A stretch of DNA of 64,000 nt. Source: Mycoplasmatota bacterium WC44 (GTDB lineage: Bacteria > Bacillota_I > Bacilli_A > MAG-NZ). The notes under the pieces are model-generated. The model was not told the origin of the DNA. It ran no database searches and saw only the letters and a list, made by a program, of their open reading frames with translations. The stretch spans positions 918,803 through 982,802 of the forward strand of contig CP134881.1 of NCBI GenBank assembly GCA_046529715.1, in the 5' to 3' direction. Shown in pieces: positions 2,913 to 43,284 of this stretch. The translations under genes and the position numbers were made by a program. Position 1 is the stretch's first letter, and each line of letters opens with the position of its first letter.

Positions 2913-2925
2913 AGGGGGATAAAAA

Positions 2926-13416: not shown

Positions 13417-14439
13417 TTAAATCTCATTATCGTCTTTATTTGTATTAACTCTATAAATACTATACTTGATTAGATTTTTAATATGGTTAATATTATCCGA
13501 GAAAAGAACTGGTAATCCTGGTCTCCAATTTACTTCAATGAGATATAATTTATTTGATTTATCGATACACACATCTACACCTAATTGGTTAAGTTTATTA
13601 TTATAGTGCTCATCAAGATATTCAGATATTTGTAGACCGAAGACTTTTAAATTATTATATATGTTTAACCATTTATCTTTGAATTGATTTTTTAAATAAA
13701 GTTCAATATTAGCAGAGTATCCTCCTTGACTAATGTTGGACACTTTATTTTTTTTATCTCCAATCCTAGGATATATTGTTGTGATAACATACTTTCCTTT
13801 CTCGTTTTTTTGTGTATGAATTCTAAAATCTGCAGGTAATCCTTCATTTGTTTCAGAAACTATGAATTCTTGTGCTATATATTTAGTTAATTTAATTTCT
13901 GATAATTGTTTTGTTAAATTATCCATTACTTCCTCGTTCTCACCATAATTTATTATATAGGATTTATTATGTTTAGTGATAAAAAAAATTCGCTGTCCTT
14001 TGCACCCAACTGAAGGTTTTAATACTACTCTTTTATGTTTATCCATAAACTTTACTACACGTTTTTCGGATCTAGCTACAATACTCTCGGGCAAATAGTT
14101 TGTGAAAATAGGATGATCATGTAAGAGCTTTTGAATGTAATTTTTATTATGTATTTTAGATTCAGTAAAAGGAATTTCCTTTCTTAACCTAAGGCTAACG
14201 CTAAGCTGTTTTGGTGTTCTTGGACCAGTCATATTGATTATTATATCCGGATATGGAAATGTTTTTTGTTTCCATTCTCTTTCATAGTAATAACCTTCTA
14301 TTTTTCTGTTTTCAAAGTCTACTTTCCCTGGAGAAAAGTAACAAAAATCTACACCTTCCATTTTAGCAGCGGCAGCTAAAGTATAAAGCTTCGCTATTTT
14401 TGTAGGATCTTTGCGAATATGCATTACTCCGATTAACAT
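13417..14439 (-). CDS. YheC/YheD-family ATP-grasp ligase (short form, 340 aa, no N-terminal extension)
   Basis: LIGVM start of the core, YLPESI, DFRIHTQKN, SNISQGG and YLIEVNWRPG. The ATG overlaps the stop of the upstream gene (TAATG). Confidence 0.7.
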   Translation of the reverse strand: MLIGVMHIRKDPTKIAKLYTLAAAAKMEGVDFCYFSPGKVDFENRKIEGYYYEREWKQKTFPYPDIIINMTGPRTPKQLSVSLRLRKEIPFTESKIHNKNYIQKLLHDHPIFTNYLPESIVARSEKRVVKFMDKHKRVVLKPSVGCKGQRIFFITKHNKSYIINYGENEEVMDNLTKQLSEIKLTKYIAQEFIVSETNEGLPADFRIHTQKNEKGKYVITTIYPRIGDKKNKVSNISQGGYSANIELYLKNQFKDKWLNIYNNLKVFGLQISEYLDEHYNNKLNQLGVDVCIDKSNKLYLIEVNWRPGLPVLFSDNINHIKNLIKYSIYRVNTNKDDNEI

Positions 14440-15626: not shown

Positions 15627-15808
15627 AAATATCACCTCAATATATAATATGAAATAATAAAATTCAGGTGTAGTAATAATTAACTAGTATTTTCTAATTA
15701 ATAATGTAACTAAAAGCAGTGAAATAAAGGTTATAATAAACTTTATTTTTTCTAAGAATGTATATAAAAAAGTATATTTCGTAAAATAATTTTACAAGGA
15801 GGATTAAT

Positions 15809-21533: not shown

Positions 21534-22040
21534 ATGTCAAGTAACATTACAACAAAAAATTTAATGATGGCAGCTTTATTTATTGCGATAGTAACATCAT
21601 TAACATTCATTCAATTATTTTCTACACCAAACGGAGGATTAGTTCATGCTGGATACATCGCATTATTTCCAATAGCAGTAGTTTTTGGTAAAAACTATGG
21701 TGCAATTGCAGGAGCTATTGGTATGGCATTATTCGATATTCTTTCAGGATGGGCATCTTGGGCACCAGCTACATTTGTAGTAGTTGGACTAGTTGGTTAT
21801 TTTACTGGGTTAATCGCTAATGGTGGTAAAAACCGAAACATTAACATATTAGCGTTAACTGTTGGATCATTAATTTCTATAACTGGTTATTTTATTTACA
21901 ATGCATTCTTTATGAAGTTCGGAGTTGAATCTGCATTAGTATCTGCTAGTGGTGATGCAATAAAAGTATTCGTAAGTTTAGTAGTTGCAGTTTTGGTGAT
22001 TCCTTCAGTAAGTAGAATGAAAGACCAGATTAATCTATAA
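21534..22040 (+). CDS. small 5-6 TM membrane protein, ECF-transporter S-component-like
   Basis: 168-aa hydrophobic protein. It is divergent from the MocR regulator and has its own terminator. Confidence 0.45.
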   Translation: MSSNITTKNLMMAALFIAIVTSLTFIQLFSTPNGGLVHAGYIALFPIAVVFGKNYGAIAGAIGMALFDILSGWASWAPATFVVVGLVGYFTGLIANGGKNRNINILALTVGSLISITGYFIYNAFFMKFGVESALVSASGDAIKVFVSLVVAVLVIPSVSRMKDQINL

Positions 22041-22043
22041 TTG

Positions 22044-22075
22044 AAAACGGCTTTTTACAGCCGTTTTTTATTTTG
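22044..22075 (+). terminator. rho-independent terminator
   Basis: aaacggct ... agccgttt hairpin followed by T6. Confidence 0.8.
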
Positions 22076-22100
22076 AAAATATAATGAATATTATTTTAAG

Positions 22101-22140
22101 TAAAAGAAAATACTCGTCTAAGTTACGAGTATTTTTCTTT
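22101..22140. terminator. bidirectional terminator
   Basis: aaatactcgt ... acgagtattt hairpin flanked by T/A runs. Confidence 0.65.
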
Positions 22141-22317
22141 TTAATCTTCTCTTTCTTTATTTAAATTTCTTGTAATCTTTTCAATTATTATTTCAACTTC
22201 TTGACGGAAAGGAGGATCTTGTTGATTCAATAATTCCTTTGCAATTTCTAAATCTCTAGTTGTGTAACCATTTTTTGATCTTAACTTTTCTAATTGATGT
22301 TTATGAGATCTATTCAT
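22141..22317 (-). CDS. small hypothetical protein (58 aa, basic, helical)
   Basis: RBS GGGGTGA, ATG at 22317. Own terminator. No family recognised. Confidence 0.4.
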   Translation of the reverse strand: MNRSHKHQLEKLRSKNGYTTRDLEIAKELLNQQDPPFRQEVEIIIEKITRNLNKERED

Positions 22318-22481
22318 ATTAATCACCCCAGATATTTTGTGAAGATTAATTACGAGATATACATTAATAAGTTAATTGATCTATCAGATTTTTCTAAAAT
22401 ACAGTTAATGTAGCAATTAGAAGAAGTATATAAATACATAAAATGTAAGATACTATTAACAAATATAATGAAGGTGATTAA

Positions 22482-22693
22482 ATGGAAAAGAAACGGTCAA
22501 TTAAAAAAAATAAGTCACAGAACTATAAGAAACAAATAATATCGAGTTTTCAAATGAACTAAGTAATAAAGAGTATCAGCCATATGAAGCATTAGGGAAA
22601 ACAACTAACAATATTATAAAAAGTTTAGATCAAGATACAGGTGTTGAAATTATGAATGTACCAACATCAAATGATAGTAGTTCAAACCAATAA
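22482..22693 (+). pseudogene. frameshifted, diverged alpha/beta-type SASP paralogue
   Basis: It shares the 15-nt aaggtgattaaatgg RBS/start segment with the intact SASP gene. Frame 1 stops after 26 codons. The downstream frame encodes ...ALGKTTNNIIKSLDQDTG..., which aligns to SALRGKITRNLVKIAEQQLAAETG. Confidence 0.5.
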
Positions 22694-22749
22694 TTTAGTA
22701 GGCTTAGTAAATTATATTTACTAACAAATATATTAGTAAAGGTGATTAA

Positions 22750-22932
22750 ATGGATAAGAATAAAGAAAAAAATAGTAATGTAGAGTTTTCGAATGAGATT
22801 GGATCGGATTTGTATAAATCTAGTGCATTAAGAGGTAAAATAACTAGAAATTTAGTTAAGATTGCTGAACAACAATTAGCAGCAGAAACTGGGAATGACC
22901 CAACTCCAGTTGAAGATATTAAGAATAAATAA
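22750..22932 (+). CDS. alpha/beta-type small acid-soluble spore protein
   Basis: SASP DNA-binding signature RGKITRNLVKIAEQQLAAETG in a 60-aa protein. Confidence 0.8.
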   Translation: MDKNKEKNSNVEFSNEIGSDLYKSSALRGKITRNLVKIAEQQLAAETGNDPTPVEDIKNK

Positions 22933-22935
22933 TAT

Positions 22936-22970
22936 AAAAACACTTAAATATGATATTTAAGTGTTTTTTA
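22936..22970 (+). terminator. rho-independent terminator
   Basis: aaacacttaaata-tga-tatttaagtgttt hairpin followed by T6. Confidence 0.8.
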
Positions 22971-23069
22971 ATGTTTAGTGCTTGAGTGAAGTAAACAACA
23001 ATATATATTATGTATCGAAAAATTGGTAAAACAGGCCTAATTTGATATAATTGTGTCAACTATAAGTAG

Positions 23070-23083
23070 TATGAATATTCATA
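23070..23083. promoter_or_regulatory. perfect 14-bp palindrome TATGAATATTCATA upstream of the ABC operon (candidate operator)
   Basis: Read directly from the sequence. Confidence 0.3.
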
Positions 23084-23208
23084 GTTAATATTTAAGATGA
23101 AAATTTATACTATAATTTAAAGTTATATTTAAGGGGTTTGTGAGATAATCGTAGCAATAATTATGTGGTTTTTAATACTTGTATGAAATTATTATAGGGG
23201 GGGGATTT

Positions 23209-25461: not shown

Positions 25462-27882
25462 ATGATAAAACTGAACAATGTAAATAAGTATTTTAATAAA
25501 GGAAAAAGAAATGAGAATCATGTAGTTAATAATATAAATCTTGAATTACCAGAAACGGGTTTAGTAATAATATTAGGTAAATCAGGAAGTGGGAAAACAA
25601 CATTATTAAATATAATTAGTGGAACTGATGATTTTAATAAAGGAACATTGACTATAGATAATAAAGTTATAGAGAAATATAAATCTAGAATTTGGGATAC
25701 AATCCGTAATAAAGATATAGGATATGTTTTTCAAAATTATAACCTATTTAATAATCTTACTGTATATGGAAATATTGAGTTTGTATTAAAACTTAGTGGA
25801 GTTAGAGAGAAAGATGAGATTAAAAAAAGGGTAGATTACTTACTTGAATCTGTAGGTCTTGAAAATTATCATAATCGTCTTGTAAGCTCATTATCTGGTG
25901 GACAAGCTCAAAGAGTTGCCTTAGTAAGAGCATTAGCTAAGAATCCAAAAATTATTGTAGCTGATGAACCAACAGGTAACTTAGATAGTAAAAATACGAT
26001 AGATATAATGAACATCTTAAAGGTTGTATCTAAGAAGAAACTAGTTCTTATGGTTTCCCATGATATCTCACTAGCTGAGTATTATGCTGATAGAATAATC
26101 AGTATTCAAGATGGTTTAATAGTCAATGATGATTTAAATGAGTATGATGGAGTTTTGGAAATTGAACAAGATCAACAAATCTTCTTGAAAGACTATCAAA
26201 AAGAAACTCTAAATAGTAATAATGTAGATTTAACCACTTACAATAATGAAAATAGTAGTGGTGCTATAGATATTGAATTAATAGATAAGAATGAAACTCT
26301 TTATTTAAAAGTAGATTCAAAGAAACATAGTAGAATTAAATATTTAAATGACGAGTCAGAAATTGAACTGATTAATGATTTTTCATGCAATAAGAACAAT
26401 TATTTAGAAACAGATTTTGATTTTGATAATATTATTGATAACAAATCTGGTATGGCCAAGATTTCTATTAAAGACTCCTTTGATTATGCTCTAAAGAAAA
26501 TTAGTGAATTATCAATTGGGAGTAAGATGCTTTATTCTATATTAGCCTTAGTTGGAGCATTAATGTCATTGTCTATTGGAATATATGGATCAGTAAATGA
26601 TTATGATGATACATTAATAGTTGATAAATCAAGGAACTACATTATCGTAGAGGGTGATTACACATATGATGAAGCTAAAGCTTTAGAAGAATACGATTAT
26701 ATAAAAAAAGTAAATTTCTTTACAGAAGCACAGGATTATAAGCTAAGTACAGAAACATATTATCAAATAAGTAATTCAATAACACTTAATGCTCATCCTA
26801 GTGATATATCTCTTTTATCTAATGACAACATTATATATGGAAGATATCCAGAAAAAAATGAGATAGTTATAGATAAATTTTTAGCTGATGGACTTATGTA
26901 TAAATATTCTGAGCGTGGAATAGACTCATATGAAGATGTTTTAAAATCAAGAATAAAATTACAGTCAGATGGAAACGAGTTTGATTATTCAATAGATACA
27001 TATTTTGAATTTGATATAGTAGGTATCTCTAATGATGATTCTCCAACAATATGGATGTCAGAAGAATTATTATATTCCTTATCATTGCCAACTATGGTGG
27101 ATTATACTATCTTGGGTGATGGAGTAGAATTTAGTAATGGGAGAATGCCAAGATCATTTAGAGAAGTATTATTAAGTGATGATTATTCAAATGTTGGAAC
27201 ACCATCACAAATAGGAACAAGCTTAGGCACTCTGAGTGTTGTTGGAACCTATTCATATAATGCTGGGCTAAGAAATTACAACACAAAGTACTTAATGTTA
27301 TCGGATGTAAAACTGATGGAAAAGATGCATTTCGCAAGAACTGCACAAACATTCTTTAAAACATCAGTTTTAGCATATACTGATAACCCGGCTGAAACGA
27401 TACAAAAACTTGATGAAGAAGGAATTTACGCTTATAGTGATTACCTTGATAATTATGATGAGTATATTGCCGATCAAACATTAGCAAACACGGGATTCTT
27501 AACTTATTCTTTAATTGGGATTATTTCAGCGGCATTAGGTATTTATTTCATAATGAGATCAAGTTTATTATCAAGAATATATGAAATAAGTATTTTAAGA
27601 GCAGTTGGAGCTAGTAAATCAGATATTAGAAGACTATTCTTAGTGGAAATATTATTTATAACAACAATCAGTTCTCTAGTAGGATATTTAGCTTTAATCT
27701 TGTTATTATCAAGTGGATTAAGTAACGCTAAAGGTTATATTGATTTTGTTCACTTTACGTTTATTAACGCAATTATTGGCGCGCTTATTTTATATTTAGT
27801 TAATATTATATTTGGATTAATTCCGATAGAATTACTTATCAGGAAAACACCTTCTAAGATATTATCTAGATATGACTTATAA
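25462..27882 (+). CDS. fused ABC transporter ATPase / FtsX-family permease (MacB-like) 2
   Basis: GKSGSGKTTL, LSGGQAQR and IIVADEPTGNLD. Same architecture as the first. RBS TAGGTGA, ATG at 25462. Confidence 0.8.
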   Translation: MIKLNNVNKYFNKGKRNENHVVNNINLELPETGLVIILGKSGSGKTTLLNIISGTDDFNKGTLTIDNKVIEKYKSRIWDTIRNKDIGYVFQNYNLFNNLTVYGNIEFVLKLSGVREKDEIKKRVDYLLESVGLENYHNRLVSSLSGGQAQRVALVRALAKNPKIIVADEPTGNLDSKNTIDIMNILKVVSKKKLVLMVSHDISLAEYYADRIISIQDGLIVNDDLNEYDGVLEIEQDQQIFLKDYQKETLNSNNVDLTTYNNENSSGAIDIELIDKNETLYLKVDSKKHSRIKYLNDESEIELINDFSCNKNNYLETDFDFDNIIDNKSGMAKISIKDSFDYALKKISELSIGSKMLYSILALVGALMSLSIGIYGSVNDYDDTLIVDKSRNYIIVEGDYTYDEAKALEEYDYIKKVNFFTEAQDYKLSTETYYQISNSITLNAHPSDISLLSNDNIIYGRYPEKNEIVIDKFLADGLMYKYSERGIDSYEDVLKSRIKLQSDGNEFDYSIDTYFEFDIVGISNDDSPTIWMSEELLYSLSLPTMVDYTILGDGVEFSNGRMPRSFREVLLSDDYSNVGTPSQIGTSLGTLSVVGTYSYNAGLRNYNTKYLMLSDVKLMEKMHFARTAQTFFKTSVLAYTDNPAETIQKLDEEGIYAYSDYLDNYDEYIADQTLANTGFLTYSLIGIISAALGIYFIMRSSLLSRIYEISILRAVGASKSDIRRLFLVEILFITTISSLVGYLALILLLSSGLSNAKGYIDFVHFTFINAIIGALILYLVNIIFGLIPIELLIRKTPSKILSRYDL

Positions 27883-27930
27883 TTACAAAAAAATAACTAT
27901 GAAATTTTGTAGTTATTTTTTTTGTAATTA
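27880..27930. terminator. long palindromic bidirectional terminator
   Basis: taattacaaaaaaataactat ... gtagttatttttttttgtaatta. Confidence 0.75.
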
Positions 27931-27944
27931 ATCATAATAGTTAC

Positions 27945-27996
27945 TGGCATTTGACAAAAACTAAGTAATGTATTAATATATAAATGGCAAATGCCA
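27945..27996 (+). promoter_or_regulatory. sigma-A-like promoter (TTGACA, 17-nt spacer, TAATAT) bracketed by the inverted repeat GGCATTTG ... CAAATGCC (candidate operator)
   Basis: -35 at 27951-27956 and -10 at 27974-27979. The dyad arms are at 27946-27953 and 27988-27995. RBS AAGGAGGA, ATG at 28012. Confidence 0.6.
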
Positions 27997-28011
27997 ATAA
28001 GGAGGATTTAT

Positions 28012-28407
28012 ATGAAAGTTGCAGTAGCAGTAAATAATAACAATGTTTCAAAACATTTTGGTAAAACTGAAGGTTTTATGTTGTTCGATATTCAAAATAA
28101 AGAAGTTATATCAAGAGAATATTACAACAATTCTATAAATAGTGGATGCGGAATAACAAGTGAATTAACAGATTTAGGAGTTAAATCACTTGTTGTAGGT
28201 GGTATGGGAGAAAATGCTAAACGTAAAGTAGAAGCTCAAAATATTGAAGTTTATTTAACTAATAGTGTGTCTATTGAAAAAGTAGTAGAAGATTTTATTA
28301 ATGGAAAGTTAAATAAAGAAGATAACTTATACTTAGTTCACCAACATAATCACTCACATGATGATCATGGTAGTAAAAATCATAAGTGTTGCGGTCGTCA
28401 TCATTAA
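28012..28407 (+). CDS. NifX/NafY/NifB-C-terminal-type (dinitrogenase FeMo-cofactor-binding family) small protein with a His/Cys-rich tail
   Basis: MKVAVAVNNNNVSKHFGKTEGFMLFD is the typical family start. C-terminal HQHNHSHDDHGSKNHKCCGRHH. Confidence 0.6.
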   Translation: MKVAVAVNNNNVSKHFGKTEGFMLFDIQNKEVISREYYNNSINSGCGITSELTDLGVKSLVVGGMGENAKRKVEAQNIEVYLTNSVSIEKVVEDFINGKLNKEDNLYLVHQHNHSHDDHGSKNHKCCGRHH

Positions 28408-28420
28408 TTTAAGTGATTTT

Positions 28421-28450
28421 TAGACAGAATTTATATTCTGTCTTTTAATT
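28421..28450 (+). terminator. rho-independent terminator
   Basis: agacagaat ... attctgtct hairpin followed by TTTAATT. Confidence 0.7.
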
Positions 28451-28509
28451 GTATTTTACTCAAAGTACCAACTATATAATATTATTGTAAATCTACTGGA
28501 GGAAAAATA

Positions 28510-28887
28510 ATGCCAAGACCAGTTAAACCGAGAAGTATAGCATTTAAACCTAATAATACTTATTTTGCGCCTAAAAATGAATATTGCCCTAAAAGTGATC
28601 TTGTTATTTTGAAATTTGAAGAACTTGAGGCAATGAGATTAAAAGATTTAAAGAATCTTAATCAGGAGGAATGCGCGAAGGAAATGAATGTATCACGTCA
28701 AACTTTTCAAATTATTATTGATAAAGCTAGAGAAAAAGTTACCAATGCACTAATCAATGGTAGTGCAATTAATATTCAAGGTGGAAATTATATACTTAAA
28801 TCATGTGATAAAAAGTGTAAAAAATATGATAATGATTCTAATAATTTAAGTGAAGAGAATAAATACTGTAGTATCTGTAATAAATAA
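28510..28887 (+). CDS. DUF134/UPF0251-family predicted DNA-binding protein with a C-terminal Cys cluster
   Basis: MPRPVKPRSIAFKP...YFAP start. EELEAMRLKDLKNLNQEECAKEMNVSRQTFQ is a sigma70-region-4-like HTH. CDKKC...CSIC zinc-ribbon-like end. Confidence 0.65.
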   Translation: MPRPVKPRSIAFKPNNTYFAPKNEYCPKSDLVILKFEELEAMRLKDLKNLNQEECAKEMNVSRQTFQIIIDKAREKVTNALINGSAINIQGGNYILKSCDKKCKKYDNDSNNLSEENKYCSICNK

Positions 28888-28914
28888 TAAATATACATAA
28901 CAAAAGGTGAGATA

Positions 28915-29487
28915 ATGATAAATTTAGATTTAAGAGATAAAGATTGTTCAAATGCGTTACTTGAACTTGAAAATGAGTTAAAAAATAATAGTACTGGTGA
29001 GAAGATAGTATGTGTCGTTAGTAGTGAGACTACTAAATCAACAATAGAAAATATGCTTATGACTGAAGGGTACACATTTAAAATAACATCTAATAAAAAT
29101 GATTTTTATATTGAGATTATTAAGAATATAAAATCTAGTGATGAATTTAATAAAAACTATGTGATTGTATTTGATAAAAATTATATGGGTGAAGGAGATA
29201 AAGAGTTAGGTGAAGCTTTAATGAAATCTTTTGTTTATACACTCTCTGAAATGAGTAATCTACCTAGCCATATATTGCTTTATAATGAAGGTGTAAAATT
29301 GGTTTCAGAAGGGTCTGAAATGTTAGATAGATTTGTTTTATTAAGCGACAAGGGAGTAAATATATTAAGTTGTGGGTCATGTGTTAAGTATTTTGAACTT
29401 GTTGAAAAAATCAAAGTGGGAAGAATCTCAAACATGTTTGAGATTATAACAACACAAACACTCGCTGATAAAATAATTAAACCCTAA
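28915..29487 (+). CDS. YedF-like two-domain protein (TusA-like N-terminus plus DsrE/DsrF-like C-terminus)
   Basis: LDLRDKDC... N-terminal fold motif with a degenerate CPxP. The C-terminal half is DsrE-like. It sits next to a DUF3343 gene. Confidence 0.45.
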   Translation: MINLDLRDKDCSNALLELENELKNNSTGEKIVCVVSSETTKSTIENMLMTEGYTFKITSNKNDFYIEIIKNIKSSDEFNKNYVIVFDKNYMGEGDKELGEALMKSFVYTLSEMSNLPSHILLYNEGVKLVSEGSEMLDRFVLLSDKGVNILSCGSCVKYFELVEKIKVGRISNMFEIITTQTLADKIIKP

Positions 29488-29729
29488 TGACTAGCTTGAT
29501 TACTTTTAATAAAGAACACCAAACCTTTAAAGCACAGAAATTACTAAAAGAAAGGTATGATGTTAAAATAATACCTATACCTATTTATATCGAAGTTAAT
29601 TATTTTAATGGTATAGCTCCATGTGGATTTGGATTAGTCGTAGACGAGTTAGATTTAGAGGGAGTAAGCATAGTATTATCTAAAGAAAACATTAAGATTG
29701 AACATACATTTGATATAGATGATTTCTAA
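29487..29729 (+). CDS. DUF3343-family small protein (putative Se/S carrier-like)
   Basis: LITFNKEHQTFKAQKLLKE...VKIIPIP...CGFGL matches the DUF3343 pattern. The start overlaps the yedF-like stop. Confidence 0.6.
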   Translation: MTSLITFNKEHQTFKAQKLLKERYDVKIIPIPIYIEVNYFNGIAPCGFGLVVDELDLEGVSIVLSKENIKIEHTFDIDDF

Positions 29730-29789
29730 TAGTCCTTATTTTTTTAATATAAAAAATAAATAAAGTGGTTACAAATAATAATTAAAAAT

Positions 29790-29817
29790 GACGATAAGAA
29801 ATATATCGTTTTTTTTA
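29790..29817 (+). terminator. rho-independent terminator
   Basis: acgata ... tatcgt hairpin followed by T8. Confidence 0.75.
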
Positions 29818-30051
29818 AGAAGTTATATATAAGGTGGAAAAGAAATACAATTTTTGACAAAATATTACATGTGTTATATTTTAATTGAAATATAAGGTGT
29901 AATCATTATTAATTTGGAATAGATGGGTGTTGTTCTTAAGTGTATTTCAACTATTGGTTGAAATAATCAAAGAAATTCAATTAAAGAGTTGTAGATTATA
30001 AGTATCTTATGATATAAAATAGTAGTAACTTATACAAATGGAGTGATAAAG

Positions 30052-30684
30052 ATGATAAGTGGAGTTGGAGAAAGAATTGCAACATTAAGAAAATTAAAGA
30101 GTTTAACACAAGCAGAACTAGCAAATTTATTGAACATTTCTCACCAGTCTGTTTCAAAATGGGAACGAAGTGAAAGCTATCCGGATATAAGCTTGTTAAT
30201 AGAATTACGTGAAATATTTGAAACATCTGTAGATTATATATTAACTGGAGAAGAGATTGATTATTCTTCATCGAAAATGTTTGAAAGTACATCAATAGAT
30301 AAAGAAATTTTATCTATCAACGAACATGATTTGAGAAAATTCTTAATCAGTGCTTTAGATAAAGGGGATACAAATCTAGATTTAGATAATTTGATTGATA
30401 GACTTCCTTCAATTGACTTAAGAGACGTACTAGTCTATGCACTAGATAGAGGGAAAACTGACTTCAGTTTGAGTAAAGCGATAGAAAACATTCCTTCTAT
30501 AGATCTAAGGGATGTTTTACTTGTAGCTATAGATCATGGTAAATATGATTTTCAATTAAATAAAGTTGTATCAAGGTTACAACCGTCTGAATTTGAAGAT
30601 TTAGCTACTGCTATTGAAAATGATGGTGTTGATACTAAATTAGATATTGAATTAGATGAGATGAGAAGTCTAAATAAAATATAG
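30052..30684 (+). CDS. XRE-family HTH regulator with three tandem ~37-aa C-terminal repeats
   Basis: N-terminal GERIATLRKLKSLTQAELANLLNISHQSVSKWE. Repeats of the form ALD+G.TDF.L...I..IPSIDLRDVL. RBS GGAG, ATG at 30052. Confidence 0.7.
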   Translation: MISGVGERIATLRKLKSLTQAELANLLNISHQSVSKWERSESYPDISLLIELREIFETSVDYILTGEEIDYSSSKMFESTSIDKEILSINEHDLRKFLISALDKGDTNLDLDNLIDRLPSIDLRDVLVYALDRGKTDFSLSKAIENIPSIDLRDVLLVAIDHGKYDFQLNKVVSRLQPSEFEDLATAIENDGVDTKLDIELDEMRSLNKI

Positions 30685-30713
30685 AATATATCTTAAATTA
30701 AGAGGGTGAGTTA

Positions 30714-31269
30714 TATGTTTAGCTTTATAGAAGCAGCAGAAGGTATAACAAGATTTTATGTATATATTGCAATTTTTGGAACAACAATTTTCGTAATACT
30801 AAACTTATTAATGTTTATAGGTTTATTAGATGAAATTGGAATTGATGTTGATCTTGACTTTGAAGCAATTGAAAGTACATTTACTCCTTTCAAGTTAGTA
30901 ACATTTAGAGGAATAATTGCTTTCTTTATGTTTTTTGGATGGGGTGGATACTTTTCAGGAAACTTGATTTATGCAATTTTATTAGGTATAACTGCGTTTA
31001 TATCTATTGGATTAGTTTATTATTTTTCAAGAAAGTTACAGCAAAAAGGAAATTATTCTTTAACAGATGCTGTAGGACGTGAAGGGAAGGTCTATCTAAG
31101 AATTAAGGGAGATATGTCTTCGCCTGGAAAAGTAATGATTAAATTATCTAGTGGTATTAAGGAAATTGATGCAATTAGTGAGGAATCACTTGAATATAAT
31201 GATAAGGTAGTTGTTGTAGATACCTTAGGTAACTTATTAATTGTAAAAAAAAATGAGGAGGAAGTGTAA
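30714..31269 (+). CDS. NfeD-like membrane protein (YuaF-like; flotillin-associated)
   Basis: N-terminal TM helices and a C-terminal OB-fold-like segment. It is immediately upstream of flotillin and translationally coupled to it. Confidence 0.6.
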
Positions 31270-32732
31270 TGGAACCAACAACTATTATTGCTGCATTGGC
31301 TGTATTATTGATTGTTACCTTTGCAGGTATAATGTCAAGATACAGAAAATGTCCAGCAGACAAGATTTTAGTAATTTACGGTAAAGTAGGAAAAAGTGCT
31401 GATGGTGACACAAGAAGTGCAAGATGTATTCATGGTGGAGCTAGTTTTATTTGGCCAATCATCCAAAGTTTTGAATATATGGATTTAACTCCTATGTCTA
31501 TAGAAGTTAATCTTACTAATGCTTTATCAAAGCAAAACATTCGTGTTGATGTACCTTCAAGATTTACAGTTGGTATTTCTATTGAGCCAGGCACAATGCA
31601 AAATGCTGCAGAACGCTTACTTGGTTTAAGTCATAACGATGTTAAAGAACTAGCAAAAGATATTTTATTCGGTCAATTACGTTTAGTAATTGCTACAATG
31701 GATATTGAAGAAATTAACTCTGACCGTGATAAATTTTTAGATAATGTTTCTAAAAATGTTGAGGCGGAATTAAGCAAAATAGGTTTAAAACTTATTAACG
31801 TTAACGTAACAGATATTAAAGATGAATCGGGATATATTGAAGCACTAGGAAAGGAAGCAGCGGCTAAAGCAATCAATGATGCTAAGAAATCTGTTGCCGA
31901 GAAAAACCGTGATGGATCTATTGGTCAAGCTAATGCTCATAGAGATGAAAGGGTATCAGTTGCAGAAGCTGACGCTACAGCAGTTTCTGGTGAAAATAAA
32001 TCTAAGATTGTTGTATCACAATCAGATGCAGAACGTCGTCAACGTGAAGCAGAAGCTCTACGTTTAGCTACAGCATCTGAAAAAGTACAACAAGCTAAAG
32101 CGTTAGAAGAAGCTTATAAAGCTGAACAAGAAGCTGAGCTTAGCCGTGCAGCTCTTGAAAGAGCAACAAAAGAAGCAGATATTATTGTACTAGCACAAAT
32201 TGAAAAAGAAACAGTAACAATTGCAGCTGAAGCAGAAGCTGAAAAAATAAGAAGACATGCACAAGGGGAAGCAGATGCTATTTTAGCTAAAATGCAAGCA
32301 GAAGCAAACGGTGTGTATGCATTACTAACTAAGCAAGCTGATGGTTTTGCTCAAATCGTGAAAGCAACTAATGGTGATGCAGATAAAGCAGTTCATTTAA
32401 TGATTGCTGATAAACTTGAAACTTTAGTTAAAACTCAAGTCGAAGCTATTAAAGGAATTAAGATTGATAAAGTTACTGTATGGGATGGTGGAAATGGTGA
32501 TAAACCAGCAACTGCTAATTTCTTATCAGGAATGTTAAAATCATTACCTCCATTAAATGATATATATAAGTCAGCTGGATTAAATCTACCAAATATGTTA
32601 AATGTTAATCCAGACAAGATAGATTTTGAAGAAAATAATGTTTCTATTGAAACAAAAATTGATTCAGTTCCTACTACAATAGAAGAACAAACAATTGTAG
32701 ATTCAGATGATTTACCATCATCAGAAGATTAG
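31269..32732 (+). CDS. floT: flotillin-like SPFH/band-7 protein FloT
   Basis: N-terminal membrane hairpin, SPFH domain, and a long Ala/Glu-rich coiled coil (EA repeats). ATG overlaps the upstream stop (TAATG). Confidence 0.75.
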   Translation: MEPTTIIAALAVLLIVTFAGIMSRYRKCPADKILVIYGKVGKSADGDTRSARCIHGGASFIWPIIQSFEYMDLTPMSIEVNLTNALSKQNIRVDVPSRFTVGISIEPGTMQNAAERLLGLSHNDVKELAKDILFGQLRLVIATMDIEEINSDRDKFLDNVSKNVEAELSKIGLKLINVNVTDIKDESGYIEALGKEAAAKAINDAKKSVAEKNRDGSIGQANAHRDERVSVAEADATAVSGENKSKIVVSQSDAERRQREAEALRLATASEKVQQAKALEEAYKAEQEAELSRAALERATKEADIIVLAQIEKETVTIAAEAEAEKIRRHAQGEADAILAKMQAEANGVYALLTKQADGFAQIVKATNGDADKAVHLMIADKLETLVKTQVEAIKGIKIDKVTVWDGGNGDKPATANFLSGMLKSLPPLNDIYKSAGLNLPNMLNVNPDKIDFEENNVSIETKIDSVPTTIEEQTIVDSDDLPSSED

Positions 32733-37809: not shown

Positions 37810-38775
37810 ATGCTTTCTATAGCTTTAGTTATCATGTTTATTTCAAGTATTATAGAATTATACTTTTTTACAGTAGCACTAGTCTCAGGAGAATCTTTAT
37901 TCTTATACTCAACAATTCATATAGTATTAATTATTAATTACTACCTTATGAACTTATATTTTATAAAAAGTAAAAAAGAAGAAAAGCCTATATTCATAAC
38001 TTTTTTTCTTCCTGGATTAGGTTTTTTAATTGTATTTACTATTGAGTTTTTTACAGCTATAACTAAACGTAAAACAGAAGAAATAAATATGGTTACAATA
38101 TTTGAAATACTTGAAGATACAAATGAATATAACTTCTTAAGTGAAGATAAAGTGTTATCTTACAGTGATAATATGAAGTATTTAGATAACGATGATCAAC
38201 TATCATTATTATTTGATGTATTAGAAGACGGGACTTATGATAAATTAAAAATTCTTAAACAAGGCGCAGAAAATGAAAATCAAGTAATTAAATATTACTC
38301 ATCTGTATATCTAAGTTCTCTAGCGAATCAATTTGAGAATGAATTATTTAGATTATCCGATAAATTTACTAAAACAGATAACTTAATTGATTTAAAAAAT
38401 TTGATTACAACATATGATTCATATTTAATTAGTGGTTTATTAAAAGATGATATGTATGATTTTTTTAACAAAAAAAATATACATTTCTTAGAAATGGCAA
38501 TTGAAGCTGAAATCCAGGTGATTAAAAACTCAGTTAGATTAGTAAATGCCTACTTAAACGATGAACAATATGATAAAGCAATAAAAATGATAGAAAAAAA
38601 TAAGATTACTCACCCTGCGGATCTTGAGATGAGAATATTAGAAATAAATTATTATGCTAAATATAACAATAATGATAAAATTACAAAATGTGTTAAAGAT
38701 ATCTATGACAAATTCTCTTACATTCCACCAAAAGAGTTATCGATACTTAAATTTTGGAGTAAAGAAGTCGCATGA
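37810..38775 (+). CDS. pelE: PelE-like membrane/TPR protein
   Basis: Two N-terminal TMs plus a helical-repeat C-terminus. Size and position match PelE. Confidence 0.45.
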   Translation: MLSIALVIMFISSIIELYFFTVALVSGESLFLYSTIHIVLIINYYLMNLYFIKSKKEEKPIFITFFLPGLGFLIVFTIEFFTAITKRKTEEINMVTIFEILEDTNEYNFLSEDKVLSYSDNMKYLDNDDQLSLLFDVLEDGTYDKLKILKQGAENENQVIKYYSSVYLSSLANQFENELFRLSDKFTKTDNLIDLKNLITTYDSYLISGLLKDDMYDFFNKKNIHFLEMAIEAEIQVIKNSVRLVNAYLNDEQYDKAIKMIEKNKITHPADLEMRILEINYYAKYNNNDKITKCVKDIYDKFSYIPPKELSILKFWSKEVA

Positions 38776-40190
38776 TAGTATGTTTACTAATTGAGGGGTC
38801 TTACCCTTATGTTGTGGGTGGAGTGTCAGGATGGGTTAATAGTATTATAAAAGCTATGCCAAATGTAGAGTTTAAGATACTTTCAATAATGCCTTCGGAA
38901 ACTGGTAAGTTAGAAATCAAATACAAATTGCCAGATAACGTAATTGAACTAAAAACAATATACCTTGATGGTTATATTGATAACCAAAATGGTGATTATG
39001 TTAATCAAGTAAGATTATCTAAAAAAGAAGAAAAAGAATTAAGTAAATTACTACATTTTGATTTAGATATAGACTTATCTAAAGTTCTTGAAATAATGGA
39101 TAATAAGAAGTCTGTAAGAAAAGTAGAAAATTTCACTAGAACCAAATTCTTTTATAATATTTTAAAAGAAAAATATTTTAAGAATTATAGTGATTTGAAT
39201 TTTAATAAGTATGTATGGACATCAAAAGGTATGTATAATCCATTCTTATTTGTATTAGATTCTGATATACCAAAAGCAGATATATATCATTCAGTTTCTG
39301 CAGGTTATGCAGGATTGATTGGAGCAGTAGCTAAGGTTAGATTTGATAAGCCGTTTATCTTATCAGAACACGGTATATATACAAGAGAAAGACAAGAAGA
39401 GATTGTAAAAGCTAATTGGATTAAAAAAGTATTTAAGATGATATGGATAGACTTTTTCTTCTATGTGTCAAATATTGGGTACAAATACGCTGATAAAATA
39501 ACTTCTCTTTTCCATGACGCAAGGAAATTTCAAATTGTTTATGGTGCAGAAGAAGAAAAATGTATAGTTATATCTAATGGAGTTAACGTTGAATCTTTTG
39601 ATATTCAAAAAAAAGATCACAAAAGTTTCAATATAGGGTTCATTACTCGTGTTGTACCAATTAAAGATGTTTTAACGGCTATAAGAGCATTTTACCTAGT
39701 AAACAAAAAGATGGATAATGTAAATTTTTACATCATTGGTCCAACCGATGAAGATGAAAAATATTATGAACAATGTTTAAAACTTACGGAAACATTAGGC
39801 TTAAACAATGTTGTCCATTTTACAGGAACTGTAAATATAAAAGATTATTTACCTGAGACAGATGTTGTTATATTATCGTCTTTATCTGAAGGACAACCAC
39901 TGGTACTATTAGAAGCTATGTCAGCGGGGATACCATGTGTTACAACTGACGTAGGATCATGTAAAGAAGTACTTAATGCAGATGCTTCGGACTTAGATAA
40001 ATGTGGAATTATATATGAACCAACTAACTATGAGCAATTAGCATCGAAATTAATATATTTATATGAAAATATAGATTTAAGAGAAAAAATGGGTGCTAAT
40101 GGTAAGGAAAGAGCTAATTCTTTATATAATTATAAAGATATGGTTAATAAATATTTCAAACTTTATGAAGATGTAATAAAGAAATATTAG
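38772..40190 (+). CDS. pelF: PelF, a GT4-family glycosyltransferase
   Basis: N-terminal IVCLLIEGSYPYVVGGVSGWVN and LSEHGIYTRERQEE closely match PelF. E-x7-E GT4 motif in EGQPLVLLEAMSAG. Confidence 0.85.
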   Translation: MIVCLLIEGSYPYVVGGVSGWVNSIIKAMPNVEFKILSIMPSETGKLEIKYKLPDNVIELKTIYLDGYIDNQNGDYVNQVRLSKKEEKELSKLLHFDLDIDLSKVLEIMDNKKSVRKVENFTRTKFFYNILKEKYFKNYSDLNFNKYVWTSKGMYNPFLFVLDSDIPKADIYHSVSAGYAGLIGAVAKVRFDKPFILSEHGIYTRERQEEIVKANWIKKVFKMIWIDFFFYVSNIGYKYADKITSLFHDARKFQIVYGAEEEKCIVISNGVNVESFDIQKKDHKSFNIGFITRVVPIKDVLTAIRAFYLVNKKMDNVNFYIIGPTDEDEKYYEQCLKLTETLGLNNVVHFTGTVNIKDYLPETDVVILSSLSEGQPLVLLEAMSAGIPCVTTDVGSCKEVLNADASDLDKCGIIYEPTNYEQLASKLIYLYENIDLREKMGANGKERANSLYNYKDMVNKYFKLYEDVIKKY

Positions 40191-40198
40191 GAGTTATA

Positions 40199-41662
40199 AT
40201 GGCAGGAATAAGTATAAGACTAGAAAAATTAATAAAAGATGAAAGTTATATATCAAATTTTACTGGTTATTTAATCACGACATTTGCAGTGGCTGGTCCA
40301 TGGATCATAACTATTATTGTCTTGTCAATATTTTCATCGCTATTTTCTGCTGAGCTTAGAGTATCAGCAGATTTTCAGCTGTTTAATGCAACAGTAGTAT
40401 ACGGATTCATAGGTTCACAGCTTATAACTGTACCGTTTCAATTCATTGTTACGAGGTATATAGCAGATGAAATATATCGAAATAGAACTGACTTTTTAAG
40501 AGCTACTTTTACTGGAATGTTAAAGGTGATTTTTGTAATTGGAGCAATTTTATCAGGCTTCTTGTTTTTTAGATCAGATTTACCATTATATTATCAGGTG
40601 CTAGCATCATACTTCTTAATTATGGTCTCATTTGTATGGATATCTTCATTTTTTATCTCAGCACTTGGTGATTATACTTATCTTGGAAAAAGTTTTATCG
40701 TAGGAAGTATTGTTGGATTTGTTACATTCGCTCTTGTAAGCCAAATATCTTATCTTTTTTCTTATAGTGTTACTATAACAGGTCTATTAATGATGGTTAG
40801 TTCTATGACTACAATTTTTATAATGATTTGTTACAAATTTATGACAAGTATTGATAAATCTAATCAATGTCAATTTGATTTTATAAGGTCATTTTCCAAC
40901 TACTCATCACTGTTTTATATCGGTGTATTCTATATCTTAGGTTTATGGATTGATAAATTTCTAATGTGGGGTAGCAAAATATCTCTAAATGTTTTAGATG
41001 TCCTTTATGTAGCACCAGCATATGATCAAGCTTCTTTTTTAAGTAATTTACTCATCATCCCAAGTAATGTATTGTTCTTATCACTTGTAGAAGTTGAATT
41101 TATAAAATTTTATAAAGATTATTTCAAAAAAACAGCAGATGGAACATATATTGAGATTGAAAGAGCTAGAATACTTATGAAAAAAGAACTTCTTAGGAAG
41201 ATACTTCAGATTTTTATAATTCAATCAGTAATAGTTATGTTTATATACGTCTTTACATATGATATTTTTAGTATTTTAAAATATGATGTCCTGTCGAAAA
41301 TGATTTTTACTAATCTATTACCAGGATTAACATTCTATATTTTTGTACTACTATCAATAATAATGTTTCTTTACTTTGAAGAAAGAATGAAAGCATTGTT
41401 CACTTCACTAGGTTTTTTTATAGCAAACTTAAGTTTTACTTTATTTTATATAAACCAAGGACATGAATCTTATGGAAAAGGGTTTACTATAGCATCGATA
41501 GTTGTTTCTATATATGCTTTGTTTGCACTGATTTCTATGCTTAATAATGTTAACTATAGATTATTTGGAGTTAAAACTGTAACCACTAAGAAAAGAAAGA
41601 AATATTTTGAGACTATAGCTGATAATCTAAGGATTAAGAAAGGAGTTGAACTAGATGAATAA
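40199..41662 (+). CDS. pelG: PelG, a polytopic (MOP/MATE-like) Pel export membrane protein
   Basis: N-terminal MAGISIRLEKLIKDESY matches PelG MAGIGFELRKIL..DSY. ~12 TM. Confidence 0.8.
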   Translation: MAGISIRLEKLIKDESYISNFTGYLITTFAVAGPWIITIIVLSIFSSLFSAELRVSADFQLFNATVVYGFIGSQLITVPFQFIVTRYIADEIYRNRTDFLRATFTGMLKVIFVIGAILSGFLFFRSDLPLYYQVLASYFLIMVSFVWISSFFISALGDYTYLGKSFIVGSIVGFVTFALVSQISYLFSYSVTITGLLMMVSSMTTIFIMICYKFMTSIDKSNQCQFDFIRSFSNYSSLFYIGVFYILGLWIDKFLMWGSKISLNVLDVLYVAPAYDQASFLSNLLIIPSNVLFLSLVEVEFIKFYKDYFKKTADGTYIEIERARILMKKELLRKILQIFIIQSVIVMFIYVFTYDIFSILKYDVLSKMIFTNLLPGLTFYIFVLLSIIMFLYFEERMKALFTSLGFFIANLSFTLFYINQGHESYGKGFTIASIVVSIYALFALISMLNNVNYRLFGVKTVTTKKRKKYFETIADNLRIKKGVELDE

Positions 41663-43274
41663 GAAAATAACTGTATTAGTTTTTATACTTCTAAGTATTT
41701 TTATAGCCTTAACATACGAAAGTTCAACTATTAATCCTTTAATAGTGAATCATCCTGATTATAGCAATGACATGGTAGAAGAGTTATTGATTACTACATA
41801 TCACTCTGATAAAAATAAAGGTGTATATTCTTATGATGAACTAGTAGCGAATGAAGGGTACAATGTCGATGGTAAATCTATTAAAATTGATGTTCTTCTT
41901 CAAGAAATAAATGGTGATAAAGTATGTACAAGTTGTTACGGATATGGTCTAGTTACTAGTAATACTAAGCTATCATTAAGAGGGCAGTCGTCAAGAAAGG
42001 AAGAACAAAAGTCATATAAATTAGTAATTAACAGTGACATTGATTCCTTCAAGGGTGAACACATACTAAATTTAAAAAAACACGCTGAAGATAACACTCG
42101 AATTAGAAATAAATTGATCTTTGATTTAATTAAAGACATTCCAAATACACTTGTTCCAAACACTAAATTTGTACACTTAACATTAAGAGATTTAACTAAC
42201 GGAACAGGTAAGTTAGAAGATTTAGGTCTTTTTACTCATCATGAACAAGTTGATAACGATTTCTTTAAAAGGAGAGGTCTAGACCATAAAGGTAATTTAT
42301 ATAATATAAATTTCTTTGATTTTTATAGATATAAAGATGTAATTATGATGAAAGATGACCCTTTATATAGTAAAAAAGCATTCGAAGAACTATTAGAAAT
42401 TAAAGGTTCAAGTGATCACTCAAAATTAATTGCCTTATTGACTGCACTTGATTCACCTTTAATACCAATTAACCAAGTAATAAATAAATACTTTGATCGT
42501 GATAATTATCTTACTTACTTAGCTGTGAATATGATTGTGGATAATGTCGATGCATCGGCAAGGAATTTTAAATTATATAGACCATCAGATAGTGAGAAAT
42601 GGTATTTTATCTTTTGGGACTATGACAAAACTATAAATTTAGGATCTAATTCAAACGACGCATGGAGAAAAGGAATTCATCTTTATATGAATGATAATCT
42701 TCATAAACAGTTTCTAAGTGTAGAAAGCAATAGACAGGAACTTATGCAGAAAATGGAAGAACTAAAACCTTACTTTAGTGAAGAAAAAATAACCAATCTT
42801 CTGAACGAATATAAACCTGTACTAGAGTATTATTTAACAGAAAGCGTTGATGCTGAATATAGTGATTTAACTTATTCAGAAGTAGAATCTGAAATGAGTC
42901 AATTTTATGATAATATCTTACTTAATTATGATGTTTTCTATGAATCTATACTTGTTCCTAAAGCTGTATTTATAGGTCAGTTTGAGAAAAAAACAAGATA
43001 TCATATCTTAACATGGAGTAAATCATTAGATTTCAATAATGAAAAAATACTATATGATGTAAAAATAGCACGTGATCCTTTATTTGAAGATATTGTTTAT
43101 GAGGAAATAGGTCTAAGAGATAATCAAATTGTTTTATTTGATTTTGACCCAGGTAACTACTTTGTTTCAGTAGACTCCATCAACGAAAGTAATTATAGAC
43201 AACCAGCTTTTGACAATTATACTGATAGACAAAAAATAAAATATTTTGGTGTCAAGAATATCGTTGCTGAGTAG
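41655..43274 (+). CDS. cotH: CotH-family (atypical kinase-like) protein with an N-terminal signal/TM
   Basis: CotH-type blocks (NFKLYRPSDSEKWYFIFWDYDKT). The start overlaps the pelG stop by 8 nt. Confidence 0.65.
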   Translation: MNKKITVLVFILLSIFIALTYESSTINPLIVNHPDYSNDMVEELLITTYHSDKNKGVYSYDELVANEGYNVDGKSIKIDVLLQEINGDKVCTSCYGYGLVTSNTKLSLRGQSSRKEEQKSYKLVINSDIDSFKGEHILNLKKHAEDNTRIRNKLIFDLIKDIPNTLVPNTKFVHLTLRDLTNGTGKLEDLGLFTHHEQVDNDFFKRRGLDHKGNLYNINFFDFYRYKDVIMMKDDPLYSKKAFEELLEIKGSSDHSKLIALLTALDSPLIPINQVINKYFDRDNYLTYLAVNMIVDNVDASARNFKLYRPSDSEKWYFIFWDYDKTINLGSNSNDAWRKGIHLYMNDNLHKQFLSVESNRQELMQKMEELKPYFSEEKITNLLNEYKPVLEYYLTESVDAEYSDLTYSEVESEMSQFYDNILLNYDVFYESILVPKAVFIGQFEKKTRYHILTWSKSLDFNNEKILYDVKIARDPLFEDIVYEEIGLRDNQIVLFDFDPGNYFVSVDSINESNYRQPAFDNYTDRQKIKYFGVKNIVAE

Positions 43275-43284
43275 GGGTGGATTT

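Follow-up and report, generated by a model that had tools for sequence, protein, structure and literature searches.

A 64,000-nucleotide stretch of contig CP134881.1 from Mycoplasmatota bacterium WC44 (referred to below as the window; its overall G+C content is ~28%, and the genome from which it comes is 2.45 Mb in size) contains a compact run of four small genes on the plus strand, which encode, in order, a NifX-like protein, a protein of the DUF134 (UPF0251) family, a two-domain YedF protein and a DUF3343 protein. The first of these genes is preceded by a promoter of the sigma-A type, and this promoter is bracketed by two copies of a 20-base-pair (bp) palindrome, termed here operators O1 and O2. 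A comparison of this arrangement with loci from other genomes makes it probable that the locus is composed of two independent conserved modules: a reduced cluster of the orp (orange-protein) type, in which the DUF134 protein would repress transcription via O1 and O2, and a YedF-DUF3343 pair.

Genes of the locus

An earlier note on this DNA, made from the sequence alone, had placed these four genes on the plus strand downstream of two MacB-like ABC transporter genes, and had assigned a protein domain to the product of each. All four genes are present at that place, each scoring above the curated cut-off of its family, and all four domain assignments hold when the products are compared with Pfam and NCBIfam models. 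The description of the upstream transporter pair stands in part: an ABC ATPase domain (ABC_tran) is found at the N-terminus of both proteins, which are long, but an FtsX permease domain was detected only in the second. A terminator-like hairpin downstream of that second gene isolates the promoter of the cluster from the transporter genes (Table 1). The G+C content is uniform along the window, at about 26-31%, and the possibility that the locus belongs to a recently acquired island was therefore rejected. The DUF134, YedF and NifX-like proteins of the window are 100% identical to entries recorded for the WC44 genome. Rfam and tRNA scans of the window returned no matches, and a search of the literature found no paper on strain WC44.

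The NifX-like protein matches family PF02579 across residues 9-96 with a score of 68.6 bits (cut-off 26.3), and its relatives of solved structure include TM1290, TM1816 and MTH1175 (E values of 6e-8 to 6e-5). The protein is not a true NifX, since it scores 16.6 bits with the corresponding model (TIGR02663) against a cut-off of 112, and the annotation of the window includes no nif gene. The His/Cys tail that had been described for it was confirmed: its last 24 residues, LVHQHNHSHDDHGSKNHKCCGRHH, contain eight histidines and two cysteines. In a word-indexed search of 5.8 billion proteins (E <= 1e-10) the protein matched only itself. Translation most likely begins at ATG 28012, because an AGGAGG sequence lies 6 nucleotides upstream of that codon, homologues begin with MKIAV or MKVAI, and the first available ATG, at 27991, lies inside the second operator. 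In orp operons of other genomes (loci L001-L080, described below), the NifX-like protein encoded beside DUF134 carries a highly conserved tail, STGSVC-x-EH-x-H-EGHC-x-E, which in the window protein is replaced by the longer and more His-rich one. Both the window protein and its homologue from a member of the Haloplasmataceae are also without the conserved HFGHCEGF cysteine and the NPGHRPGFLP loop.

Promoter and paired operators

The promoter reported earlier in front of the NifX-like gene (TTGACA, 17 nucleotides, TAATAT) is present as described. Its -35 hexamer is perfect, its -10 hexamer is good, and the spacing between them is typical; with 10 of 12 consensus matches, it is tied for the top promoter-like score of the region in a consensus scan. 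The 8-bp inverted repeat that had been noted on either side of this promoter is likewise real and does bracket it, but proves to be longer, with 9 bp perfectly repeated (TGGCATTTG / CAAATGCCA) and 14 of 16 positions paired when the arms are extended over 27941-27956 and 27985-28000. Comparison with other genomes favors a reading of the repeat as a 20-bp palindrome, TTATTGGCAWWTGCCAATAA, that is present twice: one copy, O1, covers the -35 element, and the other, O2, sits just past the -10 element, the two being 40 bp apart. The core of O2 begins 5 nucleotides past the -10 hexamer, over the expected start of transcription; when counted from a start inferred to lie approximately 7 nucleotides past the -10 hexamer, O1 is centered near -36 and O2 near +4.

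The significance of this repeat derives from its conservation across genomes, and not from the rarity of the 9-mer, which when taken alone gives 17 matches in the window with at most one mismatch (12.4 expected). A weight matrix built from other genomes finds two sites only in the 64-kb window, O1 at 22.0 bits and O2 at 25.5 bits, with no other site reaching 6 bits, and a chance repeat is ruled out by that matrix. Two further explanations of the repeat were considered and set aside. A sigma-54 promoter, to which the TGGCA motif might point, is ruled out: neither site is accompanied by TTGC at the spacing required of a -12 element, and the promoter has -35 and -10 hexamers of the sigma-A type. 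The idea of an RNA hairpin or attenuator was rejected because the left arm is situated 5' of the -10 hexamer and is therefore untranscribed.

Conservation of the operator across genomes

Two sets of loci were used for comparison: (i) 80 loci anchored on DUF134 (1.12 Mb), each from a different species and mostly from Clostridia, together with one Haloplasmataceae and one Mollicutes metagenome-assembled genome (MAG); and (ii) 80 loci anchored on YedF, drawn from metagenomes (548 kb in total). Genes were annotated by iterated profile searches, and family assignments were checked with Pfam. An initial pattern search of the 80 DUF134 loci with TGGCA-N2-TGCCA was followed by the iterative construction of a weight matrix, for which 151 sites in those loci were used and the window was left out. 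The matrix describes the palindrome given above, carries approximately 28 bits of information, and has a 9-2-9 form with a GGCA/TGCC core. Sites scoring at least 14 bits number 151 in the 1.12 Mb of DUF134 loci, as compared with none in the 548 kb of YedF loci that served as a control.

The distribution of these sites is closely tied to operon starts. Among the 57 operons that were scored (those for which the upstream region was present and at least one orp-type gene, that is, Mrp, NifX-like or Fur-family, preceded DUF134), 55 begin with one or more sites and 45 with two; the start-to-start spacing of the sites is 39-41 bp in 40 of those 45 pairs, with the window displaying the modal value of 40 bp. 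The arrangement seen in the window recurs almost letter for letter in other loci, a typical example being ...TTATTGGCATTTGACAATAA - 11 nt - TATAAT - 5 nt - TAGCAAATGCCAATAA..., and the geometry of the window promoter is identical to that of clostridial orp promoters. The view of the earlier note that this is an operator-flanked promoter is thus strongly supported by the appearance of the same two-site geometry in dozens of genomes. A search of the literature for the operator strings found nothing relevant, and the motif is apparently a widely conserved operator that has gone undescribed.

The canonical operon behind these sites has the order O1 and O2 - (Mrp/NBP35) - NifX-like - MinD-type ATPase with 4Fe-4S insert - second ATPase - NifX-like - (Fur-family) - DUF134, and the last of its NifX-like proteins carries a C-x2-H-x-H-x2-H-C tail. 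Judged by its gene content, this operon is the Bacillota counterpart of the orp genes of Desulfovibrio (PMC8359166, PMC6345978). A NifX-like gene is found in 67 of the 80 DUF134 loci, in agreement with the conserved pairing of these two genes that had been claimed previously. By the two-site definition of a Bacillota orp-type cluster that was adopted in this analysis, the window locus (22.0 and 25.5 bits, 40 bp apart) is of that type. It does not correspond to a full orp-type cluster, having one NifX-like gene and DUF134 only, and the annotated genes of the window, which extend from 215 to 54,682, include neither Mrp nor the orp ATPases. Since its relatives carry the full orp set, the window locus is taken to be a reduced derivative. 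The Haloplasmataceae MAG (L025) likewise has one NifX-like gene and DUF134, preceded by a single perfect site.

Operators of the DUF134 type, often paired, also precede genes that lie outside orp operons in other genomes (Table 1). The products of those genes include FmdE (PF02663), DUF5320 (PF17253), C_GCAxxG_C_C (PF09719), flavin reductase and radical-SAM proteins, a distribution that suggests a wider regulon of redox- or metal-related small proteins.

DUF134 as a candidate repressor

The DUF134 protein of the window matches PF02001 with a score of 76.2 bits (cut-off 27) and displays the conserved EELEAMRLKD and VSRQTFQ columns of that family; it does not reach the archaeal equivalog PRK04217 (57 bits versus 115). 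It consists of a helix-turn-helix resembling sigma-70 region 4, followed by a short C-terminal Cys4 motif (C-x3-C-x16-C-x2-C). The SRQTFQ sequence, which forms the putative recognition helix, and the four cysteines are invariant in an alignment of orthologues, and SRQTFQ differs in paralogues. An AlphaFold2 model of the protein has a predicted local distance difference test (pLDDT) score of 78.8, with values above 90 across the helical core, and residues 36-83 superpose on sigma-70 region 4 (SigE) and on the DNA-binding domain of DeoR to within about 0.7-1.0 A, so that the fold fits a role in DNA binding. No full-length fold match was found in the PDB, where the best E values were 0.02 by sequence and 0.07 by fold. 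The closest relative of the protein (P0002, 74% identity) is encoded on a 1-kb contig; the family as a whole is large, with approximately 4,800 clusters at 50% identity matching at E <= 1e-3.

Several observations make DUF134 the best candidate for the protein that binds the palindrome. Fur-family proteins, the sole other regulators seen in the site-bearing operons, are absent from 22 of those 55 operons, and neither the unit in the window nor that in L025 encodes any regulator other than DUF134. In a Desulfosporosinus locus (L079) a monocistronic DUF134 gene has a 26-bit site of its own approximately 50 nucleotides upstream of its start codon, a signature typical of autoregulation. A second Mycoplasmatota genome (L081) encodes a divergent DUF134 protein without the cysteines, in which the recognition sequence reads VSRATIQ, behind a palindrome that is itself divergent, GAGCATATGCAC, and that occupies the same position past the -10 element. 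That protein is the product of an uncalled open reading frame of 102 codons (L081 13690-13995; 69.6 bits to PF02001) between a ParA-like gene and the first NifX-like gene, and represents a different subtype, with 36% identity to the window protein over 66 residues. Together with the invariance of SRQTFQ, these points indicate that DUF134 probably binds both O1 and O2 and represses; on this comparative evidence it is a candidate for sequence-specific binding to the palindrome, and a perfect -35 hexamer, a good -10 hexamer and sites near -36 and +4 provide a geometry that fits repression.

We infer from these comparisons that DUF134 is the binder, that it acts as a repressor, and that it responds to a signal, in a process that may proceed as follows. 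The strong sigma-A promoter would drive expression of the NifX-like metal-cluster carrier gene, and DUF134, probably in the form of dimers, would occupy both 20-bp operators via its helix-turn-helix, thereby excluding RNA polymerase. Release of DUF134 would permit high expression of the NifX-like protein, aided by a strong ribosome-binding site, and would presumably be triggered through the C-terminal Cys motif, which may bind zinc or an Fe-S cluster. By analogy with OrpR of Desulfovibrio, the signal could plausibly be one of redox, Fe-S or metal status.

Transcription units

The operators control the NifX-like gene, and the DUF134 gene lies behind an intergenic hairpin; at this locus DUF134 may or may not be autoregulated. 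The spacer between the two genes (28408-28470) folds with a free energy of -14.8 kcal/mol (z = -4.4). Beyond it lies a perfect TATAAT that has no operator, and whose -35 element is so weak that the consensus scan did not report it. Stable hairpins, often terminator-like, are found in the NifX-like/DUF134 spacer of several other loci that are without a Fur-family gene, and most of these spacers also contain a TATAAT (L025, L027, L032 and L041; Table 1). It may therefore be that DUF134 is often expressed separately from the operon that it controls, and in the window it may be made from the weak operator-less promoter, with or without read-through from upstream.

Downstream of that point the genes are closely packed. 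The gap between the DUF134 stop codon and the YedF start codon is 27 nucleotides and contains no hairpin, the YedF stop and DUF3343 start codons overlap by 1 nucleotide (TAATG; the same overlap is found in L085), and a terminator follows the DUF3343 gene. For these reasons DUF134, YedF and DUF3343 probably share one transcript, which would arise from read-through of the hairpin or from the weak operator-less promoter at approximately 28475.

Table 1. Genes and control elements of the locus (window coordinates), with related stretches of other loci (coordinates of those loci; the ranges cover the hairpin-containing spacers and the operator-bearing regions)
Feature	Position	Strand	Remarks
Terminator-like hairpin, 3' of upstream ABC/FtsX gene	27880-27935	+	-17.9 kcal/mol, z = -7.9 versus shuffles; inverted repeats I1, I2
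Operator O1	27939-27962	no strand	core TGGCATTTGACA at 27945-27956; overlaps -35; 22.0 bits
Sigma-A type promoter	27951-27979	+	TTGACA 27951-27956, 17-nt spacer, TAATAT 27974-27979
Operator O2	27979-28002	no strand	core TGGCAAATGCCA at 27985-27996; 25.5 bits
Ribosome-binding site AGGAGG of NifX-like gene	28000-28005	+	6 nt 5' of ATG 28012
NifX-like gene	28012-28407	+	131 aa; PF02579
Intergenic hairpin	28422-28443	+	9-bp stem, then UUUUAAUUGUAUUUU; from terminator scan; possible partial terminator
Perfect TATAAT, candidate -10 of internal promoter	28475-28480	+	29 nt 5' of DUF134 start codon
DUF134/UPF0251 gene	28510-28887	+	125 aa; PF02001
Two-domain YedF gene (TusA-like + DsrE-like)	28915-29487	+	190 aa; TIGR03527
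DUF3343/Se_S_carrier gene	29487-29729	+	80 aa; PF11823
Cluster-ending terminator-like hairpin	29782-29818	+	U8 tract; -9.7 kcal/mol, z = -3.0; inverted repeat I3
Spacer hairpin, L025	7925-8003
Spacer hairpin, L027	7890-8003
Spacer hairpin, L032	7872-8003
Spacer hairpin, L036	7950-8003
Spacer hairpin, L041	7918-8003
Operator outside orp operons, L013	9264-10013
Operator outside orp operons, L039	9541-10216
Operator outside orp operons, L059	12257-12615
Operator outside orp operons, L074	2023-2390
Operator outside orp operons, L063	916-1479, 2448-3727, 14017-14529
Operator outside orp operons, L045	3942-4465
Operator outside orp operons, L064	8585-9132
Operator outside orp operons, L051	1099-1665

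The YedF-DUF3343 pair

The YedF protein matches TIGR03527 over its full length with a score of 162.8 bits (cut-off 110); of its individual Pfam domains, TusA falls just under its cut-off (27.2 bits versus 28.6) and DsrE exceeds it (26.2 versus 22.7). The CGSC (CGxC) motif is present in the protein and invariant in the alignment, from which it can also be seen that the CPxP motif is absent from the window protein and from its two closest relatives. Those relatives, which are 58-60% identical to it, come from the Mycoplasmatota locus L081 and from an unassigned short contig (L085); all others are no more than 36% identical. Judged from this alignment, the window YedF is a member of a small divergent clade in which CPxP has been lost and CGSC retained. 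An exact-sequence look-up of the window YedF recorded no match, and a metagenome scan with an alignment specific to this clade confirmed no relative; a broader YedF alignment was used for a repeat of that scan. The linker between the two domains, which is poorly conserved among YedF proteins, contains a 24-nucleotide unit repeated 2.5 times (29128-29184; Tandem Repeats Finder). The DUF3343 protein scores 35.6 bits with PF11823 (cut-off 25) and retains the conserved cysteine of that family (APCGFG).

Both families have been put forward as candidate selenium-metabolism proteins, and a few YedF-bearing organisms are noted to be without SelD (Lin et al. 2015, PMC5322559). A DUF3343 gene is present in 37 of the 80 YedF loci, mostly directly downstream of YedF or one gene away, and a canonical locus such as L082 has the order Mo-hydroxylase - SelD - YedF - unknown - NifS-like - DUF3343 - YqeC; this company of SelD, NifS-like, DUF3343 and YqeC agrees with that published analysis (PMC5322559). 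Neither selD nor any other selenium gene is found among the annotated genes of the 64-kb window. YedF and DUF3343 are candidate relay or carrier proteins for sulfur or selenium.

Two probable modules and the alternatives to them

The proposal in the earlier note that the four genes form one dedicated and co-conserved unit fails when neighborhoods are compared in both directions: YedF or DUF3343 is found in 0 of the 80 DUF134 loci (within approximately 8 kb), and DUF134 or a NifX-like gene is found in 0 of the 80 YedF loci (within approximately 6 kb). In L085, the YedF-DUF3343 pair is present with its own promoter and without DUF134. In L081, the pair is followed, approximately 3 kb downstream, by a cluster that belongs to a different subtype (DUF134 - NifX-like - NifX-like - ATPase - ATPase). 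The juxtaposition of DUF134 with YedF-DUF3343 is thus, within the loci compared, specific to this lineage, and the two modules may or may not be functionally coupled there.

A reading in which all four genes nevertheless serve a single pathway, with YedF and DUF3343 feeding sulfur or selenium to a metal-chalcogen cluster held by the NifX-like protein and DUF134 sensing that cluster and autoregulating the unit, appears rather unlikely. It is favored by the tight packing of the genes, which share a strand and are enclosed by terminators, by the proximity of YedF-DUF3343 to the DUF134/NifX-like/ATPase cluster in L081, by the gene for a NifS-like cysteine desulfurase that in L025 closely follows DUF134 on the other strand, and by the in vitro binding of Fe-S or Mo clusters to NifX-family domains (PMC6345978). 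These points are opposed by the reciprocal counts, by the self-contained pair of L085, and by the lack of an operator before YedF in the window or in any of the YedF loci. Moreover, the DUF134 protein of L081 belongs to the different, Cys-less subtype, and L081 and the window share a neighboring GntR-type gene (76% identity), so that the proximity seen there could reflect inherited synteny rather than selection for function. A narrower form of coupling, in which the YedF-DUF3343 relay was recruited to the DUF134/NifX-like system in this Mycoplasmatota lineage, supplying sulfur or selenium for the metal-chalcogen cluster of the His/Cys-tailed carrier as DUF134, by way of its cysteines, senses the state of the cluster or of the redox environment and gates synthesis of the carrier, is a speculative and unlikely proposal; if it were true, the lineage would possess a minimal supply line for metalloclusters that is complete in itself and separate from the Isc, Suf and Nif systems, and three families without known function would together acquire their first physiological role.

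Two other readings accept the palindromes and assign DUF134 a different role. That they are bound by another regulator, such as a Fur-family protein or a globally acting redox or metal regulator from a gene elsewhere in the genome, is quite improbable: 33 of the 55 site-bearing operons do also encode a Fur-family protein (PF01475), and the outer TTAT...ATAA flanks faintly resemble Fur or PerR boxes as generally known, but the 22 remaining operons, including that of the window, are without such a gene, the motif has a 9-2-9 form with a GGCA/TGCC core and not that of a 7-1-7 Fur-type box, and the lone DUF134 gene of L079 has a site of its own. Within the window there is no Fur-family gene, only a DtxR-type regulator approximately 20 kb away. 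That DUF134 is instead an activator or a sigma-like factor, for which the TTGGCA half-sites would act as -35-like elements, is highly improbable. The protein does give weak matches to models of sigma-70 region 4 and of extracytoplasmic function (ECF) sigma factors (E values of approximately 1e-3 to 1e-4), it resembles the -35-binding domains of ECF sigma factors in structure, and TTGGCA differs from TTGACA by one base. It contains no sigma region 2, however; the perfect -35, good -10 and 17-nucleotide spacing of the promoter mean that no activator is needed; O2 covers the predicted transcription start; and the palindromic form of the sites points to binding by a dimer.

Several considerations weigh against two independent modules with DUF134 as the local repressor. 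The window DUF134 is truncated: it has four cysteines, the second Cys being missing from the CxxC knuckle, as compared with approximately eight cysteines in clostridial DUF134 proteins, where CxxCG and CPxCG knuckles resemble a zinc ribbon and are joined by further cysteines. The C-terminal part of its structural model is of low confidence (pLDDT 43-52). A literature search with the terms DUF134, UPF0251, PF02001 and COG1342 found no paper on the function of the family, and a regulator encoded elsewhere in these genomes may be the binder. The hairpin at 28422-28443 may terminate transcription fully, in which case DUF134 would not be autoregulated at this locus. Finally, the proximity seen in L081 hints that the two modules are not wholly unrelated in this lineage.

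Other features of the window

Upstream of the two ABC-type transporter genes lies a gap of approximately 1.1 kb (22040-23179) that has no open reading frame longer than 65 codons and no Rfam match, and within which a 60-codon open reading frame is found at 22750-22932. Three tandem YheC/D-type ATP-grasp genes are located at 215-4233, and a fourth adjoins an L-amino-acid-ligase-like ATP-grasp gene on the opposite strand (13417-15635); four YheC/D-type genes and one ligase-like gene together represent an unusual concentration of peptide-ligase-like enzymes. An arsenic resistance pair at 9647-11070 consists of an ArsC of the low-molecular-weight phosphatase type followed by an Acr3-type transporter of the SBF family.

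Just beyond the cluster, an XRE-type helix-turn-helix protein with internal repeats of approximately 30 residues (…PSIDLRDVL…) is followed by a membrane protein of 187 residues and by an SPFH/flotillin-like protein (30043-32732). Farther downstream are genes for a PelF-like glycosyltransferase and PelG, then a trio encoding a CotH kinase, a VTC domain and DUF4956 (38772-44672), and an IS3-type transposase (44988-45881).

What appears to be new at the locus

Each of the four genes belongs to a known family, YedF and DUF3343 are a known pair, and the NifX-like gene together with DUF134 is a reduced example of a known orp type. As far as a search of the literature shows, the elements that appear to be new are the operator motif, its fixed two-site geometry, and the putative role of DUF134 as a local orp repressor in Bacillota and Mycoplasmatota. 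The window locus itself is modest, being a reduced cluster with YedF-DUF3343 attached. Its comparison with other genomes yields a 20-bp operator of approximately 28 bits, a fixed promoter architecture and a candidate regulon, which comprises orp-type Mrp, NifX-like and Fe-S ATPase genes and, elsewhere, FmdE, DUF5320, C_GCAxxG_C_C and flavin reductase. A widespread and uncharacterized family thereby gains an operator target that can be tested. The orange-protein system of Bacillota and Mycoplasmatota is probably controlled by a sigma-A promoter and a repressor, as opposed to the sigma-54 promoter and OrpR activation of Desulfovibrio.

Comparison with known systems

The NifX-like protein shares its domain with the NifX/NafY/NifB C-terminal family (PF02579), and is set apart by its His8Cys2 tail and by a genomic setting without nif genes. 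The YedF-DUF3343 pair corresponds to that described previously (PMC5322559) in its two-domain YedF, its CGxC motif, and a DUF3343 gene directly downstream that retains the conserved cysteine; it differs from canonical loci in having no adjacent SelD, Sec-lyase or YqeC genes and, within its clade, no CPxP motif. A position behind a DUF134 gene is found for YedF in the window only, and in 0 of the 80 other YedF loci.

With respect to its proposed action, DUF134 may be likened to IscR, SufR, RirA and the Fur-family repressors, which sense metals or carry cysteine-bound clusters and block core promoters; the likeness would consist in a small, dimeric DNA-binding protein with a sensor part rich in Cys, encoded beside metal-cluster genes and acting at palindromes that overlap -35 and +1. 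It is a member of none of those groups: their DNA-binding folds are of the Rrf2, ArsR or Fur type, and are unrelated to the sigma region 4/DeoR-like fold of DUF134.

A further comparison is with the orp clusters of Desulfovibrio vulgaris Hildenborough, orp3-orp4-orp5 and orp7-orp8-orp9 (PMC8359166, PMC3897727, PMC6345978), in which operon expression is switched with redox potential via the Fe-S cluster of OrpR (PMC8359166). The clostridial relatives of the window locus encode the same types of protein (NifX-like proteins, an Mrp/NBP35 ATPase and MinD-type ATPases with inserted 4Fe-4S domains), and are likewise specific to anaerobes and subject to dedicated transcriptional control. DVU2107 (orp7) may be a DUF134 protein, and the small ORP-operon protein Dde_3197 may bind a [2Fe-2S] cluster. 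The means of control differ between the two groups: in Desulfovibrio it is exerted by sigma-54, IHF and the activator OrpR, an enhancer-binding protein that senses via Fe-S, whereas in the window and in Clostridia a sigma-A promoter is combined with two operators and with DUF134 as the likely repressor.

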